From Bradymonadia bacterium (GTDB taxonomy: Bacteria > Myxococcota_A > Bradymonadia > UBA7976 > UBA1532), in NCBI GenBank assembly GCA_049318805.1, contig JBMOFP010000004.1, positions 493 to 64,492 of the forward strand: DNA of 64,000 nucleotides. Direction: 5' to 3'. Positions 1 through 31,588 of this stretch are shown here, in pieces. Below the pieces are notes generated by a model. It saw nothing but the letters and a program-made list of their open reading frames with translations, searched no databases and was not told the origin of the DNA. Numbering within the stretch: position 1 is the first letter of the stretch; every line of letters begins with the position of its first letter. The position numbers and the translations under genes are program-made.

Positions 1-1266
1 GTCGACCGTGTCGAGCAACGCGGTCGCGCGGGCGTGGTCCCCCCGCCAGGCGTGGAGATGCGCTTGATAGATGCGCCGATAGGCGTGGGTTCTCGGGCGG
101 CCGTCGAGCACGTCGGCGGTCTCCAGCAGGCGCTCGGCGCTCTCGTGCTCGCCCCGCGTGATCCACGTGCGCGCCAGGGCGAGCGTGACGTCTGCGACGG
201 CGGCCTCGGAGACACCCGCGGCCAGCCGCAGCGCGCGCTCGTACAGCCCGACCACGGCCGCCCGCTCGAGCCGCCCGACGAAGAGCGGCTCCAGCACCAG
301 GGCGGCGCGCATGGCGGTCGACGCGTCCGGGTCGCACGCCAGCGCGAGCAGGTCGCCGCGGAGGCGCTCCAGCGTCGAGCCCGCCTCGACGGGGGCGACC
401 CGGTGGCGCGCGCGGGCGGCCTCGCCTTCTCGCAGGACCGCCGCGGCATGGGCGCGCCGGCTGGCCTGCCGCATCGCTTCGGGCGCGTGTCGCCTCGCGA
501 AGGTCGCGACCGCCGACGGCACACGCACGAGACCGTCGGCGACCTCGAGCACGCCGCTGTCCAACAGCGGGTGCAGAGCGCCCCGAAGCCCCGCGCCCAG
601 CACGGCGTCCAGGTCGGCGGCGCCGAGGGCGGCGTGGGCGCAGGCGAGGGTGGTCCAAGCGACCCGGGCCGAGGCGGGCAGACCCTGCCAGACGCCCAGC
701 AGCACGGCCGCGCACCGGCCCTCGTCCTCCGCGTCCAGGACCTCGGCGAAGCGATGGGCGGCGGCGCTCGCGCCGAGCACGCGGGTCATGCGCACCAGGG
801 CCAGAGCGGCGGCGGGCCAGCCGTCCGCGGCGGCGACGAGCGGGTCGAGCGCCGCGCTCTCTTCTTTTCGGCCCTGGCGTCGTAGGGCCTCGTCGATCAG
901 AGCGCGGGCGTCCTCCGGCCGTAGCCGGTGCAAAGGCACGCGGTGCTCCTCCGCCAGCCCGAGGGGTCGGCGCGCGGCGACCACCACGCGGGCCGCGCTC
1001 CGTGCGACGAAGGCCGCGACCGCCCGGGCGGCGCGCGCGTCGTGCACCTGGTCGAAGAAGACCCACGTCCCCGGCGGGGCGTCCGTCGGGGCGCGGGCGC
1101 GCGACGCCGAGAGGTCCACCCGCAGCACTGGGCCCCGGTCGTCCAGCGCTCGGGCCACCAAAGCCGACGCCCCCGAGCCGCCCAGGCCGTGCACGGTGAC
1201 CACTCTCGCGCCGGCGTCGAGTCTCGCGCGCAGCGCGGCTTCTTCGGAGCGTGGAATCCATCGCAT
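1..1266 (-). CDS. STAND-type (AfsR/predicted-ATPase-like) NTPase-domain protein with helical/TPR-like C-terminal part; 3'-truncated by the window edge
   Basis: Not in the ORF track because it has no stop in the window. My reading from ATG 1266: MRWIPRSEEAALRARLDAGARVVTVHGLGGSGASALV...WVFFDQ...VVVAARRPLGLAEEHRVPLHRL. This parallels the GRE..L...RLVTLTGPGGVGKT / LVLDN / TSREPL...E..V.L pattern of these ATPases. Confidence 0.7.
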   Translation of the reverse strand, partial: MRWIPRSEEAALRARLDAGARVVTVHGLGGSGASALVARALDDRGPVLRVDLSASRARAPTDAPPGTWVFFDQVHDARAARAVAAFVARSAARVVVAARRPLGLAEEHRVPLHRLRPEDARALIDEALRRQGRKEESAALDPLVAAADGWPAAALALVRMTRVLGASAAAHRFAEVLDAEDEGRCAAVLLGVWQGLPASARVAWTTLACAHAALGAADLDAVLGAGLRGALHPLLDSGVLEVADGLVRVPSAVATFARRHAPEAMRQASRRAHAAAVLREGEAARARHRVAPVEAGSTLERLRGDLLALACDPDASTAMRAALVLEPLFVGRLERAAVVGLYERALRLAAGVSEAAVADVTLALARTWITRGEHESAERLLETADVLDGRPRTHAYRRIYQAHLHAWRGDHARATALLDTVD

Positions 1267-1281
1267 CGAAGACAGGCCAGC

Positions 1282-1390
1282 AGGCTGCTGAAAAAGCCGA
1301 ATGATTCCGGGAGCGGAGCCGAATTCACTTCGGCGGAGCGGGGCTGGAAAAGTCCATGGACGGACCTTTTCCAGCGTCCTGCCAGCAGCG
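1282..1390 (+). repeat. Palindromic dispersed repeat / MITE-like element, copy 1
   Basis: 1317-1380 is an exact reverse complement of 28944-29007. It starts AGGCTGCTGAAAAAG. Hairpins: GCCGAA/TTCGGC and GCTGGAAAA-GTCC...GGAC-C-TTTTCCAGC. Confidence 0.8.
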
Positions 1391-1473
1391 CCGCGCGCCT
1401 CGGCGGACCGAACCCAAGCGTTTGAGCGTTCTTTGAGTGGCCCGCCCGACGACCCGTCGGGAGTATCGACCCC

Positions 1474-3075
1474 ATGCGAAACCCCGCGATTCTCTGTCTG
1501 GTCGTCCTGGTGTCGGGCTGCGATCAGGGCTCGGCCCCGGTGTCGTCGAGCCCCGATGCGCTCGCGCCTGATGCCCTTGCGCCCGATGTGGCTCCGCCCG
1601 AGCCCGACGCCGCCCCGCCCGAGCCGGACGCGGCCCCGCCCGCGCCCGACGCCGCCGCGCTGCCGCCGCTGGAGTGGACCGCATGCCCGGACCGCTTCCG
1701 CGGAGAGTGTACGACGCTGCGTGTGCCCCTGAACCACGACGACCCGGACGGCGAGACCATCGAGGTCTTTCTGTCTCATCGGCCGGGGTCCTCGAAGCAG
1801 CTCTGGCTTTTGCAGGGGGGGCCGGGGGCCTCGGCGGAGTCATTCTACAATTTCTATGGCTTCATGGACGCCGTAGACCCAGAGCTGGACATCTACACGC
1901 TGGAGCACCGCGGCGTCGGCGACTCGACCCGCCTGGGCTGCAGCGCCGAGGCCGCGGGCACCCCCGAGGGCTTCCAAATCAGCGCGGGAGAATGGCCGGC
2001 GTGTCTGGACGAGGTGAAGGCCGAGTGGGGCGAGCGCCTGTCCTTCTTCTCCACGACACAGGCGGCCCACGACCTGGCGCTGGCCATCGAAAACACCCGG
2101 CGGCCCGGGCAAGAGACGTTCGTCTATGGCATCTCATATGGCAGCTTCTGGGCGCATCGCTACGCCGTGCTGCACCCGGAACAGTCCACAGGCATCGTGT
2201 TGGACGGGCCGGTGCAGCCCGGCTCGACCCTGGAGGACTACGACACGTGGTTTGAACCCGTCGGTCGCGCGGTCTTCGAAGACCTGTGTCCCACCGTGCC
2301 GCGCTGCTCGACCGCGCTGGGCGACGACCCGTGGGCCTTCTTCGAGCGCACCTACGCCGCGCTCTCCGAGGGCCGTTGCCGCTCCCTGGGCCTGGACCTC
2401 GATACCTGGCGCGTCGTTTTCGCGATCTTCTTGATGGACCACAACCTGCGCGACTGGCTGCCGGCGCTCATCGTGCGGCTCGATCGCTGCGCGGTCACGG
2501 ACCAACAGGCCATCGCCACGCTCTTCGACAACCTCTTCGGCGGAGGCGGCGAAACCTTGCCGCGGACCTCGCGGGTCACGCAGGTCCACGTCCTGCTCTC
2601 GGAGAACTGGCCCCGCACGCCCGTCGACACCGCTCGGGTCGACGCCGCGCGCGAGACCGCCCACTTCTTCCAGGACGCCCTGGTCGGCCCGTTCACGCTC
2701 CAGGACACCTGGCCCCGCTACGACGCCGACCCCCTCGCCGACGCCTACGCGCCGCCCGAGGTGCCCCTGCTCACGATGGCCGGGCGCTTCGACCCCGCCG
2801 CCCCGCCGGCGCGCGTGGCCACCGGCTACCGCGACCGGTTGACGGGCCCCCACCAGACCTACGTCGAGATGCCGTACGGGGCTCACGGCGTGCTCACCGG
2901 CTCGCCCGTGGGCGACGGCCAGCCCCCGTGCCCGTTCCAGCTCTTCCGCGCGTTTCTGGCCGACCCCACGCAGCCGTTGCCGGTCGCCTGCGTCGACCAG
3001 GTGCTGGGCCCGAGCTTCGACGCCACGCCGGAAACGGCGATGCGATACTGGGGGACCGAAGACCTCTACGAGTGA
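1474..3075 (+). CDS. Lipoprotein alpha/beta hydrolase (TAP-like peptidase/esterase family)
   Basis: Lipobox LVSGC, PDA-repeat linker, LQGGPG oxyanion motif, GISYG nucleophile elbow, GRFDP acid and GAHG His. Confidence 0.9.
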   Translation: MRNPAILCLVVLVSGCDQGSAPVSSSPDALAPDALAPDVAPPEPDAAPPEPDAAPPAPDAAALPPLEWTACPDRFRGECTTLRVPLNHDDPDGETIEVFLSHRPGSSKQLWLLQGGPGASAESFYNFYGFMDAVDPELDIYTLEHRGVGDSTRLGCSAEAAGTPEGFQISAGEWPACLDEVKAEWGERLSFFSTTQAAHDLALAIENTRRPGQETFVYGISYGSFWAHRYAVLHPEQSTGIVLDGPVQPGSTLEDYDTWFEPVGRAVFEDLCPTVPRCSTALGDDPWAFFERTYAALSEGRCRSLGLDLDTWRVVFAIFLMDHNLRDWLPALIVRLDRCAVTDQQAIATLFDNLFGGGGETLPRTSRVTQVHVLLSENWPRTPVDTARVDAARETAHFFQDALVGPFTLQDTWPRYDADPLADAYAPPEVPLLTMAGRFDPAAPPARVATGYRDRLTGPHQTYVEMPYGAHGVLTGSPVGDGQPPCPFQLFRAFLADPTQPLPVACVDQVLGPSFDATPETAMRYWGTEDLYE

Positions 3076-3101
3076 GCCTGCCGCTCAGCTCGGCCTCGCA
3101 T

Positions 3102-5780
3102 TCACCCCGCGCCGATCTCCGCGATCCGCACCCGGCTCGCCCGAAGGCGCACGAGCTCGTCGGCCATCTGCGCCTCGCGCTCACGCTCCGTCTCGACGAC
3201 CTCTTCCGGCGCCCGCGCCACAAAGCCCTCGTTGGCGAGCTTGGCGCGTGTGGCGTTGAGGCTCGCCTCGGTCTTGGCGATGGTCTTGTCCAGGCGCACG
3301 AGCTCGGCCTGGGTGTCGATGAGCCCGGCGACGGGCACCAGGACCTCGAGCGGGCCCGCGACCTGGAGCGCCGCGCCCCGCGGACGCTCGCCGCCGACCT
3401 GGACCGTGACCTTCTCGATGCGCGCGAGCTTGGTGATCCGCGTGTGCTGGCCCTCGAGCAAGACCGCGGTCTCCGCGTCGGGCGCGATGACGATGGCCTC
3501 GAGGCTCGACCCGGCGGGGATCGTGAGCTCGCCCCGGATCGTGCGCACGGCGTTGATGGTGTCGAGCAAGAGCCCGACCTCGCGCTCGGCGTCGGCGTCG
3601 CGGGTGAACGCCCCGACCCGCGGGAAGTCGGCGATCATCAGGCTGGGCGCCCGGCCCTCGGGCAAAGGCAGCTTCTGCCAGATCTCCTCGGTGGCGAAGG
3701 GCATGATCGGGTGCAGGAGCCGCAGGGCGGTGTCGAGGCACTGCACGAGTGTCCACTGGGCGGCGTGCTTCTCCTCGGGGCCCGCGTCGCCGTAGAGCAG
3801 GGGCTTCGCGAGCTCGATGTACCAATCGCACAGCTCGTTCCAGAAAAACTCGTAGGCGGCGGTCGCGGCCTTGTCGATCTGGAACGCGTCGAGCGCGGTC
3901 GTCACACCCTCGATGGCGCGGTCCAGGCGCGACAGGATCCACCGGTCGACCACACCGAGGCGCTCGGGCGGGGGGCCGTCGGCGGGGAAGTCGGCGAGGT
4001 TCATCAGCCCGAAACGACTCGCGTTCCAGACCTTGTTGATGAAGTTGCGGCTCGTCTCCACGGCCTTGAGCGAGAGCTTGATGTCGCGCGCCTGGCCGGC
4101 CAGGTTGGCGAGCGTGAAGCGCAGGCTGTCGGCGCCCAGGTCCCGTGAGACCTCGAGCGGGTCGATCACGTTGCCCTTCGTCTTCGACATCTTCGCGCCG
4201 TGCTCGTCGCGCACCATGGCGTGCAGGTAGACGACGGGGAACGGCACCTCGCCCAGGAAGTGCACGCCCATCATCATCATGCGGGCGACCCAGAAGAAGA
4301 GGATGTCGAAGCCGGTCTCCATGACCGCGTTGGGGTAGAAGACCTTCAGGTCCTTCGTCTGATCGGGCCACCCCAGCGTCGAGAAGGGCCAGAGCGCGCT
4401 CGAGAACCAGGTGTCGAGCACATCCTCGTCGCGCTTCAGGCGGGCGCCGCCGCAGCCCCCGCAGGCGCTGGGGTCCTCGCGGCTCACGGTCACGTGCGGG
4501 CAATCGGCGCAGTACCAGGCCGGGATCTGGTGGCCCCACCAGAGCTGGCGCGAGATGCACCAGTCCCGGATGTTGTCCATCCACTGGAACCAGGTCTTCT
4601 CCCAGACCTCGGGCACGATGCGCGTCCGGCCGTCCCGCACGGCGTCGGCCGCGGGCTTGGCCAGCGGCTCGGCGCGCACGTACCACTGCTTCGAGAGCAT
4701 CGGCTCGACGACCACGCCGGAGCGCTGGCAGTGGCCCAGATTCAGCGTGTGCGGCTCGACCTTCACGAGCAGGCCGAGCGCGTCCAGGTCCTCGACGATG
4801 CGCTTGCGCGCCTCGAAGCGGTCGAGCCCGCGGTAGGCCTCGGGCGCGTTGGCGTTGACCTTCGCGTCGAGGTCGAGCACCGACAGTGTCGGCAAGCCGT
4901 GGCGCTTGCCGGTCTCGAAGTCGTTGAAGTCGTGGGCGGGCGTGATCTTCACGGCCCCCGTGCCGAAGGTCATGTCGACGAGCTGGGCGTCCGCGATGAT
5001 GGGGATGCGACGGCCGGTCAGGGGGAGCTCGACCTCGCCGCCGACCAGGTGCCGGTAGCGCGGATCGTCCGGGTGCACGGCCACGGCGGTGTCGCCGAGC
5101 ATGGTCTCGGGGCGGGTGGTGGCCACGACCAGATGGGTTGTCTCGCCGCCGTTCACGACCGGGTACGCCAGGTGCCAGAGCGAGCCCTGCTTCGTCTCGT
5201 GCACCACCTCGAGGTCCGAGATCACGGTCTGGCACCCCGGCGACCAGTTCACGAGCCGGTCGGCGCGGTAGATCAGGCCCTCTTCGTACAAACGCACGAA
5301 GACCTCGCGCACCGCGCGAGAGAGCCCCTCGTCGAGCGTGAAGCGCTCACGCGTCCAGTCGACCGAGCAGCCCAAGGCCTCGATTTGTTTCGTGATTCGG
5401 TCGCGGCAGATGGCCTTCCACGCCCAGACCTTCTCGAGGAAGCCCTCGCGCCCCAGGTCGAAGCGGCTGATGCCCTCCTTCGCGAGCTCGCGCTCGACGA
5501 CCATCTGGGTCGCGATGCCCGCGTGGTCCGTGCCCGGGAGCCACAGCGCGTTGAAGCCCGCCATGCGCTTCCAACGAATCAGCACGTCCTCGATGGTCAC
5601 CGTGAGCGCGTGGCCCATATGGAGCTGGCCGGTCACGTTCGGCGGCGGGATGACGATCGTGTAGGCCGGCTTCGTGGACTCGGCGTCGGCGGTGAAGTAG
5701 CCGCGCTCGCGCCACTCGGCGTACCAGCGCGGCTCGACGTCGCGGTGGTCGTAGGCCTTCGGCAGCTCAGTCTCGCTCAT
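3102..5780 (-). CDS. valS: Valine--tRNA ligase
   Basis: [13 protein letters not shown] (HIGH), [27 protein letters not shown] and C-terminal coiled coil. Start moved to [11 protein letters not shown] (5780). Confidence 0.99.
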
Positions 5781-28248: not shown

Positions 28249-28259
28249 GCGCGTTGGAC

Positions 28260-28284
28260 TCGAAGCTCGAAGCTCGAAGCTCGA
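28260..28284. repeat. Short tandem repeat (TCGAAGC)x3.6
   Basis: Read directly, immediately upstream of the RBS of the 28298 gene. Confidence 0.85.
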
Positions 28285-28297
28285 GGAGAAGAGGAAC

Positions 28298-28945
28298 GTG
28301 TCGATGCGAGTCAGGTTCGAAAGCGCCGAGACGGGCGTCGTTCCGGGTCGACGCCGCTGCACCTGGCCGGGGCTGGCCCTCTTTGTCCTCACCTTGGGGT
28401 TGGGTGTTTTCCCAGCGCACGCGGAGACCCCCGAGATGTCGGAGAACGAGGAGAACCGGCAGGGCAAGGGCTGGCTGGTGGCGGGTGGCGTGAATTTTTA
28501 CGGGTTCGCGGGCCTGGTCGAGCGTTACGTCAGGCCGTGGTTGCTGGTCGGCCTGCACCCGCGCTTCGACGTCGACGAGGTGCCCTTCACCTCGACGCAA
28601 ACCGCCGGTTCGCTCGGCGTGCAGCTGCGCGCGATCCCCGAGGACCGATTCTACGCGTCCGTCGGCCTTCGCTACCGGGACGTGTCGCTTTTCCCCAGTT
28701 GCGACGACTCGGAGTGAGAAGACGAAGACACGGCGTACTACCAGACGCGCGACGTCGGGGCTGAGGTCTCCATCGGCCTTCAGTGGCAGTGGACCCACGT
28801 CACGATGGCCGTGGAGCTCTTCGCCTTGTATCTCCGCGGCCTGAGGCTGTCTGAGACGGGGACGCCCGAGACGGGCGACCGGAGCTCGACCGGCACCGAC
28901 TTACGCATCCTCCCGACCTCGTACCTTGGGTCGTCGTTCTCATAG
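28298..28945 (+). pseudogene. Outer-membrane beta-barrel-like gene interrupted by an in-frame TGA (28715-28717): pseudogene or recoded
   Basis: Signal peptide (AHA) and amphipathic strands. After the TGA the same frame stays open: EDEDTAYYQTRDVGAEVSIGLQWQWTHVTMAVELF...TSYLGSSFS to TAG 28943-28945. Confidence 0.65.
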
Positions 28946-29072
28946 GACGCTGGAAAAGGTCCGTCCATGGACTTTTCCAGCCCCGCTCCGCCGAAGTGAA
29001 TTCGGCTTTTCCAAAGCCTCGATGATTCCGCCGGGCCGTCCTGGCCGGCGCAGGCTGCCTTTTCAGCAGCCT
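28944..29072 (-). repeat. Palindromic dispersed repeat / MITE-like element, copy 2
   Basis: 64-bp exact inverted match to 1317-1380. It ends in TTTTCAGCAGCCT, the reverse complement of AGGCTGCTGAAAA. Confidence 0.8.
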
Positions 29073-29149
29073 TCTGGCACCTCGCGCAACCGTGCGGCCG
29101 ATGGTCACCACCGCTTGACCCGGCGCGCGGGCCGGCTCCAGATGCACCC

Positions 29150-31588
29150 ATGCAGATCTCGCACCCAAACAGCACACTCGCCGCGCTCGCGGCCTCTCTC
29201 CTCTTCCTGGTCGGCGCCTGTGACGGCGACGGCGGGGGCGGCGTCGCCCCCGCCGACGATGCGCGTGTCTCGCCCGACGCAGCCGACGCGCCCGACGCGG
29301 ACGACGCGCCCGACGCAGCCGACGCGCCCGATGCGGGCGACGCGCCGGACGCCGAGCCGCGCGATGCCGAAGTCACCGCAGACGGCGAGCCGCCGCCCTC
29401 CGGGCCGTTCCGCGTGCGCGGCACCCTCGAGCAGGTCTACGTCTGGCTGGCCCCGCCCGAGACCGCGCTCGAGCTCGTCTCGGCTGAGGGTGAGGTCGTG
29501 GCGGAGGCGCCGACGGACGCCCAGGGCAGCCTCGTCTTTCGCGGCGTGCCGCCGGGCGCGGGCTATACGGTGCGGCAGCGCGAGGCCCCGGAAGAGGCGG
29601 TCGCGGACGTCACGGTGCGGGCCCCCGACGACTTCGTCGCGGAACCCAGCCTGTATGAACAACGACTGGCGCCGGGCTACGGGTACCTGACGACCCGCGA
29701 CGGCACGAAGCTCTCCGTCTTCGTCACCTTGCCTGGACCGCCGGAGGCCGGCCCCTACCCGACGGTCGTGACGTACTCGGGCTACAGCCCGTCCCAGCCG
29801 GGTCGGTTGCTCAGCGAGCAGGCGCTCGCTTTCTGCGAGGACTACCCCATCCTGTGCGATGCGCCGAGTGACCCAAATACACTCATCGCCGGGGTCCTGG
29901 GCTACGCCACCGTGGGTGTGAACATGCGGGGCACCGGTTGCTCCGGCGGCGCCTACGACTACTTCGAGCCGCTCCAGCTCACGGACGGCCACGACATCGT
30001 GGAGATCGTGGCGCACCAGCCCTGGGTCGAGCACGGCAAGGTCGGCCTCGTGGGCCTGTCCTACCCCGGCATCTCGCAGCTCTTCGTCGCGCAGACGCAG
30101 CCGCCGTCCCTGGCGGCCATCACGCCCATGTCCGTCCTCGCCGACAGTGGGTCGTCGACGCTGCTCCCCGGCGGCATCTACAACACCGGCTTCGCGCTCG
30201 ACTGGATCGAGAACGTGCTGGCCCGGGCGCAGCCCTACGGTCATGGCTGGATTCAGGAGCTGGTGGACGCGGGCGACACGGTCTGCGAGGAGCATCAGCG
30301 CCTGCACAGCCAGAACCTCGACGTCGTCGCGAAGGCGCTCGCGAACCCGTTCTACAGCGACGACATCGCCAAACCCGTGGACCCCAGCGCCTTCGTGGAC
30401 CGCATCCAGGTGCCGGTCTTCCTCACCGGGCAGTGGCAGGACGAGCAAACCGGGCCACACTTCGCCACGCTGCTCGACAAGTTCACGGGCGCCCCGGTGA
30501 AGCGCTTCTTCGTGACGAACGGTGTGCACGTCGACGGGCTCGCGCCCCAGAGCCTGAACGAGTGGATCCTCTTCCTCGAGCTCTACGTGGCGAAGCGTGT
30601 CCCGGCGATCGACCCGCAGACCACGGCGCTCTTGCCGGTCTTCTTCAACCAGGTCTTCGGGGCGTTCATCCCCTGGCCCGAGAACCGCTTCGCGGACTTC
30701 GACGACTACGATGCGGCGCTCGCGGCCTACGAGGCGGAGCCGTCCCTGCGGGTGATGTTCGAGTCCGGCACCGCCCAGGGCCTCGACGCGGGCGCCCCGC
30801 AGGCGGCCTTCTCCCACGGCTTCTCGGCTTGGCCGGTGCCCGAGACCGTGCCGACGCGGTGGTACCTCCAGCCCGAGGGCACGTTGGCCCCCGACCTGCC
30901 CGTCGCCGCCGAGGACGATCCCGGCCACAGCTTCCTGCACGAGGCGGCGGCCGGGGATCGCACCACGTTGCCCGAAGGGAGCGTGGACGCCTTGCAGCCC
31001 GCCTACGTCTACCGCCCGCTGAACGACAGCCACGCCGTCGCGTGGATTGGGGACGCACTCGCCGAAGACACGGTCATGGTCGGGAGCGGCAGCGTCGACC
31101 TGTGGTTGAAGACGACCGAGACCGACGCCGACCTCGAGGTGAACCTGAGCGAGGTCCGCCCGGATGGCCAGGAACTCCTGGTGCAGAGCGGGTGGCTGCG
31201 CGCGAGCCACCGCAAGCTGCGCGCGGACGCCACCGAGCTGCGCCCCGTGAAGTCCCACTACCTGGCGGATCTCGAGCCCGTCGTGCCGGGCGAGTGGACC
31301 GAGGTGCGCGTCGAGCTCATGCCGTTCGCCCACGCCTTCCGCGCCGGCTCTCGTGTGCGACTCTCCATCGACACCCCGGGAGACAGCCGGGCGAGCTGGC
31401 GTTTCTTGCTCTTGGAGCACGCCGACACCGTCGCCCACACCATCGGGCACGACGTCGCGCATCCGTCCAGCGTGGTGCTGCCCGTGGTCCCCGGCGTGCC
31501 CGTGCCCACGTCGCTGCCGCCGTGCCTGGCGTTGCGCGGCCACGTCTGTCGGCCCTACGCGCCGCTGGCGATGGAGCCGCCGCTTTAG
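29150..31588 (+). CDS. Lipoprotein CocE/NonD family hydrolase (peptidase S15-like)
   Basis: Lipobox LVGAC, LTTRDGTKLS, GPYPTVVTYSGY, NMRGTGCSGG, GLSYPG and a CocE C-terminal domain (AHAFRAGSRVRLSI). Confidence 0.93.
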   Translation: MQISHPNSTLAALAASLLFLVGACDGDGGGGVAPADDARVSPDAADAPDADDAPDAADAPDAGDAPDAEPRDAEVTADGEPPPSGPFRVRGTLEQVYVWLAPPETALELVSAEGEVVAEAPTDAQGSLVFRGVPPGAGYTVRQREAPEEAVADVTVRAPDDFVAEPSLYEQRLAPGYGYLTTRDGTKLSVFVTLPGPPEAGPYPTVVTYSGYSPSQPGRLLSEQALAFCEDYPILCDAPSDPNTLIAGVLGYATVGVNMRGTGCSGGAYDYFEPLQLTDGHDIVEIVAHQPWVEHGKVGLVGLSYPGISQLFVAQTQPPSLAAITPMSVLADSGSSTLLPGGIYNTGFALDWIENVLARAQPYGHGWIQELVDAGDTVCEEHQRLHSQNLDVVAKALANPFYSDDIAKPVDPSAFVDRIQVPVFLTGQWQDEQTGPHFATLLDKFTGAPVKRFFVTNGVHVDGLAPQSLNEWILFLELYVAKRVPAIDPQTTALLPVFFNQVFGAFIPWPENRFADFDDYDAALAAYEAEPSLRVMFESGTAQGLDAGAPQAAFSHGFSAWPVPETVPTRWYLQPEGTLAPDLPVAAEDDPGHSFLHEAAAGDRTTLPEGSVDALQPAYVYRPLNDSHAVAWIGDALAEDTVMVGSGSVDLWLKTTETDADLEVNLSEVRPDGQELLVQSGWLRASHRKLRADATELRPVKSHYLADLEPVVPGEWTEVRVELMPFAHAFRAGSRVRLSIDTPGDSRASWRFLLLEHADTVAHTIGHDVAHPSSVVLPVVPGVPVPTSLPPCLALRGHVCRPYAPLAMEPPL
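29273..29353 (+). repeat. 18-bp coding tandem repeat x4.5 (PDAxDA)
   Basis: CCCGACGCAGCCGACGCG-like units starting at 29273, 29291, 29309 and 29327. Confidence 0.85.

Follow-up and report, generated by a model that had tools for sequence, protein, structure and literature searches.

Features of the Locus

The window, i.e., the whole stretch of 64,000 nucleotides that was analyzed, is located on contig C4 of a metagenome-assembled genome (MAG) of 6.5 Mb in 391 contigs, which is 92.7% complete. It carries a disrupted gene for a small outer-membrane β-barrel protein, which is preceded by an operon and followed by a copy of a dispersed intergenic repeat and by a hydrolase gene (Table 1). Translation of the plus strand from position 28298 to 28945 yields 139 codons, the in-frame TGA, 75 further open codons and a TAG stop codon at 28943–28945, and agrees with the original prediction, in which 215 codons in total had been counted. 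The start codon is either the GTG at 28298 or the ATG at 28304, and the latter is called in other assemblies. The TGA is found in the context FPSCDDSE*EDEDTAYYQ (the asterisk marking the TGA) and the 3′ part ends with YLGSSFS. The Cys five residues upstream of the TGA and the weak 4-bp hairpin GACG/CGTC at 28744–28756, both pointed out before, are indeed present.

The chance that 75 codons stay open is approximately 17% at the local base composition and the openness of the frame alone is little evidence for coding. The GC3 in this frame amounts to 0.86 before and 0.88 after the TGA, next to 0.91–0.93 in the neighboring genes and approximately 0.5–0.63 in the other two frames. Because of this in-frame GC3 of 0.88 and because the most conserved motif of the family, IGLQWQW at 28772–28792, is encoded downstream of the TGA, the 3′ part is real coding sequence, i.e., the frame is coding both before and after the TGA. 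The G+C content of the barrel gene region (28250–29000) is 64–67% compared to 70–80% in the neighbors. The signal peptide, which was read from the sequence by eye and not with a dedicated predictor, has the hydrophobic core LALFVLTLGLGVF followed by AHA and then E. Just upstream, a perfect tandem repeat of the heptamer CTCGAAG is placed between the stop codon of the upstream operon and the ribosome-binding site of the barrel gene; its copy number is constant in 16 contigs and it shows one SNP among strains (28282).

Table 1. Features of the barrel gene locus, with positions in the window, and alleles of the gene with their carriers.
Feature or allele	Positions	Strand	Evidence or carriers
Heptamer tandem repeat CTCGAAG, perfect, 3.7 copies, in the 5′ leader	28259–28284	+	Just upstream of the ribosome-binding site
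Disrupted gene, small outer-membrane β-barrel protein	28298–28945	+	215 sense positions and one internal TGA; translation, GC3, model, distant homologues
Signal peptide (MRVRFESAETGVVPGRRRCTWPGLALFVLTLGLGVFPAHA, then ETPE), presumably cleaved after AHA	28304–28423	+	Read from the sequence
Nonsense codon TGA; TGT (Cys) in intact alleles	28715–28717	+	Base 28717 is either A or T in the 19 sequences
Cut-off 3′ part: strands 6–8 and C-terminal assembly signal	28718–28942	+	Invariant G160, W163, T169; GC3 0.88; model strands
Dispersed intergenic repeat copy	28944–29072		blastn copies and their left ends; depth
Allele: intact, TGT (Cys)			L023 (P0012, 213 codons); P0011 (212 aa, protein record from a 66-kb contig)
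Allele: TGT, with TAC TAC CAG changed to TAA TAA CGG seven codons downstream			L020, L021, L022
Allele: TGA			Window and 14 contigs; sole lesion in window, L024, L025
Allele: TGA and ACG to ATG at 28731			L027, L030, L034 and the six contigs with the 1-bp deletion
Allele: TGA, ATG and 1-bp deletion in the T run at 28407 (signal peptide)			L026, L028, L029, L031, L032, L033
Allele: TGA and net 2-bp deletion five bases 3′ of the TGA	28722–28724		L035, L036, L037

At its 3′ end, the gene abuts the dispersed repeat, of which blastn detects about 60 copies in the MAG. The AG of the TAG stop codon is part of the conserved left end of the repeat (consensus cTAGC|AGGACGCTGAAAAAGTCC..., also read as cTAGC|AGGACGCTGAAAAAGTCCGTCCATGGACTTTTTCAGCCCCG), so that the stop codon straddles the repeat boundary, and the repeat may have displaced the original stop codon of the barrel gene. 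The suggestion that the end of the gene is eroded holds in part: the window gene and the intact allele of L023 end with F-S while six distant relatives end with an aromatic residue (five Phe, one Trp), but the other intact allele, P0011, ends with Phe. The repeat is approximately 129 bp long and is composed of two modules (approximately 64 and 73 bp) with hairpins in each; another copy is found on the other strand at 1317–1380. In the lake metagenomes, the sequencing depth is 1000–3500 at the repeat versus about 10 in the flanks (about 100–300-fold). The repeat probably breaks the assembly, as many of its copies are located at contig ends. One of the related contigs, L035, carries a 22-bp insertion within its repeat copy, at 28999.

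The downstream gene (29150–31588) encodes an 812-residue hydrolase of the S15 (X-Pro dipeptidyl-peptidase/CocE) family with a lipoprotein-type signal (LVGAC) and a linker rich in PDA/ADA repeats. Among strains it shows 30 synonymous and 7 nonsynonymous changes, which indicates strong purifying selection.

The Encoded Protein Is Modeled as an Eight-Stranded Barrel

An AlphaFold2 model of the read-through protein, based on an alignment of only 7 sequences, has a mean pLDDT of 71 with values of 83–93 in most strand blocks, and consists of eight antiparallel transmembrane strands, of which the first and the last are each in two pieces (strand residues 59–65, 70–79, 82–90, 100–112, 118–132, 148–164, 168–188, and 200–214). 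The signal-peptide stretch is disordered in the model (pLDDT of about 30 for residues 1–45). Residue 140, the position of the TGA, is located in a loop of low confidence (residues 133–147) that connects strands 5 and 6, and corresponds to the Cys at the end of a C-D-D-S-E-C loop motif. A Foldseek search against the PDB returned small outer-membrane barrels as top matches, namely OprF-N (4rlc), CarO (4rl9), OmpA (9fzd), NspA (1p4t), and OmpX (1qj9), as well as Ail, with a probability of 1.0 and TM-scores of 0.4–0.6. The barrel-like character that had been assigned from the translation alone is in line with both model and structural matches, and the intact protein is predicted to be a signal-peptide-bearing eight-stranded β-barrel of the OmpA/OmpX/OprF-N type.

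On the level of primary sequence, the read-through protein, each of its halves and the profile of the family were searched against Pfam, NCBIfam and the PDB and gave no meaningful match. When 1.84 billion representative sequences were searched exhaustively with HMMER, five credible distant relatives emerged, P0018–P0022, of 197–264 residues and with 25–34% identity; a sixth match, P0017, is a repetitive 657-residue protein and was taken as spurious. Among 60 related genomes, a search with the single protein gave a chance-level match only, and the profile search recovered one relative each in the genomes G007 (5e-19) and G023 (1e-6). In a collection of 5.8 billion sequences, the profile matched four protein clusters, none of which is informatively named. 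P0018–P0022 have signal peptides and end with Phe, the homologue in G007 ends with Trp, and all six share the motif (I/L)G(N/H)(Q/R)W(Q/N)(W/F)..(F/A)T(L/F)G. P0020 matches the Pfam Autotransporter β-domain with 27.5 bits, just past the cut-off, and OMP_b-brl weakly with 21.3 bits. The analysis hence also defined, as a by-product, a sparse and unnamed family of eight-stranded outer-membrane barrels with a G-N-Q-W-Q-W motif. The single other genome of the genus, which is 67% complete, lacks the gene, as do almost all genomes of the taxonomic family; due to this patchy distribution the gene may have been acquired horizontally.

Intact and Broken Alleles in Lake Metagenomes

The sequence was found in runs from lake and freshwater metagenomes and in no metatranscriptome run. 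In the protein collection it is represented by a cluster of 14 near-identical proteins, and 18 lake and freshwater metagenome contigs, taken from JGI, ENA, and Logan assemblies, were compared, which are 96.7–99.5% identical to positions 28250–29160 and have the same gene neighbors as the window. All of these metagenome contigs are consensus sequences and are possibly chimeric. The comparison revealed a series of alleles with four kinds of disabling lesions (Table 1). In the two intact alleles the codon in question is TGT and the protein reads DDSECEDED across the site. The codon is thereby one base away from a Cys codon as proposed in the original prediction, although this Cys codon is TGT and not the TGC assumed there.

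The TGA is no assembly error, since it is present in 14 contigs that stem from other samples and assemblers and since only A is seen at 28717 in the Logan runs X1 and X4, which have the TGA as their only lesion. In Logan contigs of 12 further runs, including these two, all alleles are broken: the TGA together with the 1-bp deletion was found in X6, X7, X8, X11, and X15, the TGT with the TAA TAA in X10, and the TGA with the ATG change in X14, while the TGA and the TAA alleles occur together in a single sample in X2, X3, and X12. X2 additionally contains a TAA TAC intermediate. The intact allele is rare, as it accounts for two of the approximately 20 assembled alleles and for none in the 12 Logan runs. 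An exact-pattern scan around the TGA in JGI metagenome contigs, which may omit records very close to the genome of the window, returned no match, though such contigs exist in the protein-linked collection.

Several further changes accompany these alleles. The haplotype combining TGT with TAA TAA has three changes inside 6 nt (TACTACCAG to TAATAACGG), and it carries about 10 changes within the 160 bp from 28692 to 28852 (about 6%) compared to about 1% in the flanks. This suggests either that a diverged segment was recombined in or that changes accumulated in a burst once the gene was inactive. The ACG-to-ATG change, present in nine TGA contigs, creates a new ATG 14 nt 3′ of the stop codon. From this ATG, gene callers predict a spurious 71-residue protein (P0003), which is now found in the NCBI, JGI, ENA, and Logan protein sets; a 46-residue ORF at 28805–28945 (P0016) is a similar artefact.

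The Barrel Gene as a Segregating Pseudogene

In the 12 sequences compared, the barrel gene polymorphisms comprise 6 synonymous and 13 nonsynonymous changes, four of the latter being nonsense changes, versus 65 synonymous and 27 nonsynonymous changes in the four flanking genes (Fisher’s exact test, p = 0.003; p = 0.036 without the nonsense changes). This indicates that the barrel gene is under relaxed constraint. Intact alleles exist within the same species and the TGA removes strands 6–8 together with the family motif. Based on these data, the gene is very probably a recently inactivated gene for an eight-stranded outer-membrane barrel, in which a single T-to-A change turned a Cys codon (TGT) into TGA and of which a species-wide loss is ongoing. 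The original prediction had considered a nonsense mutation at least as likely as recoding, and this judgment was borne out, with the TGT in the intact gene of 212–213 codons and with the additional frameshifts in the TGA carriers.

The flanks diverge by approximately 0.5–1.2% between strains, and the upstream flank of L021 is identical to that of the haplotype with the 1-bp deletion. These are signs of recombination or chimeric assembly, and for this reason the order of events was deduced from the lesions and not from a tree. The nesting of the frameshifts inside the TGA lineage shows that, after the TGA had arisen, the frame was no longer guarded by selection either before or behind it. Recoding predicts the opposite.

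The inactivation can be envisaged as follows. The T-to-A exchange at the third base, observed directly in the alleles, puts a stop codon in place of the second Cys in the CxxxxC pair of a surface loop. Translation is expected to terminate there via release factor 2, for which a gene is present in the genome. The product would then comprise 137–139 residues; the translation up to the TGA lacks three of the eight strands, the GxQWQW motif and the C-terminus with its putative aromatic signal for insertion by the BAM machinery. In outer-membrane protein biogenesis, a five-strand fragment without a C-terminal β-signal is not insertable by BAM and is degraded. On this basis, the truncated fragment would form no barrel and would presumably be degraded in the periplasm. 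The loss extends across the species: another primary stop is found in other strains, frameshifts were later added on both sides within the TGA lineage, and an intact allele persists at low frequency. No signal peptide precedes the 3′ piece, and a barrel assembled from two separately translated pieces was therefore rejected.

TGA Opposite Cysteine Is Explained Without Selenocysteine

The alternation of a Cys codon (TGT) and TGA among homologues at precisely this codon formally equals the pattern that is used for the discovery of selenoproteins, and the frame 3′ of the TGA is open and coding-like. In the selenocysteine (Sec) reading, the TGA would encode Sec in a Cys-x4-Sec redox loop of an outer-membrane protein and the Cys alleles would represent the usual Cys homologues. 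Bacterial selenoproteins are made by recoding of UGA, which depends on SelA, SelB, SelC, and SelD and on a SECIS hairpin. None of the corresponding genes, for which the original prediction had proposed a search, was found in the 92.7%-complete MAG. For selA, the model TIGR00474 had no match at E ≤ 0.001. The best score with the selB model TIGR00475 was 98 bits versus a cut-off of 242, with matches confined to the GTPase region in other translation factors, and the best score with the selD model TIGR00476 was 56 bits versus a cut-off of 125, stemming from distant relatives only. The matches to the tRNA-Sec model RF01852 did not reach the gathering score and were identified as tRNA-Ser and tRNA-Leu by ARAGORN, which furthermore detected no tRNA with a UCA anticodon and no suppressor tRNA genome-wide, in a MAG tRNA set that is incomplete (44 found). 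The incompleteness of the MAG speaks in favor of selenocysteine insofar as a single missing gene is no proof; that all four are missing is strong evidence against it.

The same picture emerged from the mRNA and from the homologues. The 66 nt from 28715 to 28780 fold with −19.8 kcal/mol, against a mean of −18.95 kcal/mol for shuffled sequences (z = −0.32), which leaves no SECIS-like fold at this place, and Rfam has no match downstream of the TGA. Homologues with Cys or TGA at this column do exist, yet both occur only among near-identical strains: no Cys was found at the TGA column in the distant homologues, which have W, F, or L instead. Because of these residues in the distant relatives, the CDDSEC loop is regarded as private to the species. 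Moreover, 9 of the 14 other TGA carriers are frameshifted before or just behind the TGA, i.e., six by the 1-bp deletion upstream and three by the net 2-bp deletion just 3′ of it, so that the downstream frame is without selective protection. Sec insertion is a cytoplasmic process, and outer-membrane barrels are not known to contain Sec. The selenoprotein reading failed at all six points at which it could be tested and is refuted; we assign it practically no probability, and the selenocysteine part of the original prediction is to be given up. An alternative genetic code with TGA read as Trp or Gly was rejected as well: the gene for release factor 2 (prfB) is found with 496 bits, above the cut-off, the tRNA-Trp has the anticodon CCA according to ARAGORN, and TGA is the stop codon of 2872 of the 3454 long high-GC3 frames in the genome (83%). 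When the whole genome was scanned for open high-GC3 frames behind a TGA, neighboring genes in the same frame dominated the result, and only this stop-codon tally was used.

UGA is the leakiest stop codon in bacteria. Low-level readthrough, with near-cognate decoding of UGA by tRNA-Trp or tRNA-Cys, would yield some full-length barrel and make the TGA a knock-down rather than a null allele. This would fit the alleles in which the TGA is the sole lesion, i.e., the window and two of the contigs. However, no readthrough signal is evident in the fold test, release factor 2 is present, and the sister lineages with TGA are frameshifted, which means that the downstream frame is not maintained. Readthrough as an explanation of the locus is accordingly regarded as very improbable, although from the window allele, of which the TGA is the one lesion, traces of full-length protein could arise by rare near-cognate readthrough.

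The result is a clean negative, in which a textbook selenoprotein signature, TGA opposite Cys, is fully explained by a nonsense mutation. The locus should be neither annotated nor counted as a selenoprotein or as a recoding event.

Neutral Decay or Possible Adaptive Loss

The inactivation of the barrel gene makes gene loss visible in a natural lake population, in which the nested lesions order the events. This loss might be adaptive: null alleles would be selected repeatedly because the surface barrel is a liability, e.g., as a receptor for phages or bacteriocins, and the intact allele would be kept by fluctuating selection. At least two independent primary stops (TGA and TAA TAA) arose on different haplotypes with flanks only about 1% apart, different null alleles occur together in single lake samples, and the substitutions are concentrated in and around the surface loop (28692–28743), all of which would fit such selection. 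However, neutral decay after a loss of function results in the same pattern, the numbers are small, and intact alleles are rare. The data permit adaptive loss and do not separate it from neutral decay; overall, we consider the adaptive reading unlikely. If true, it would mean that recurrent adaptive gene loss was caught in progress in a surface barrel of a putative freshwater myxobacterium.

Comparison to Known Systems

The transmembrane domain of OmpA, the N-terminal domain of OprF, OmpX/Ail, NspA, and CarO (Pfam clan MBB) resemble the intact barrel protein in having a signal peptide, a mature part of approximately 170 residues and eight strands. Unlike these proteins, the window protein has no match to a curated sequence model and belongs to a sparse family with a motif of its own (G-N/H-Q-W-Q-W-x-x-F-T-L-G-x-D/E-W-I/F-G), and in the window gene Phe is the penultimate and not the last residue.

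With bacterial selenoproteins such as formate dehydrogenase H, the locus shares the in-frame UGA versus Cys in close homologues and the open coding frame downstream. It differs from them in that the four machinery genes are missing and the SECIS is absent, in that sister strains have a broken frame 3′ of the TGA, and in that the Cys is unconserved in the wider family.

The locus also resembles segregating pseudogenes in bacterial populations, which show a premature stop codon against an intact allele in the same species, several independent lesions, secondary lesions that are nested in the lineage of the first lesion, and a raised share of nonsynonymous changes. Nothing essential sets the barrel gene apart from these, except that its host is an uncultured lake bacterium, for which many metagenomes rather than isolates were compared. 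The barrel gene is best classified as such a segregating pseudogene, which is an ordinary phenomenon.
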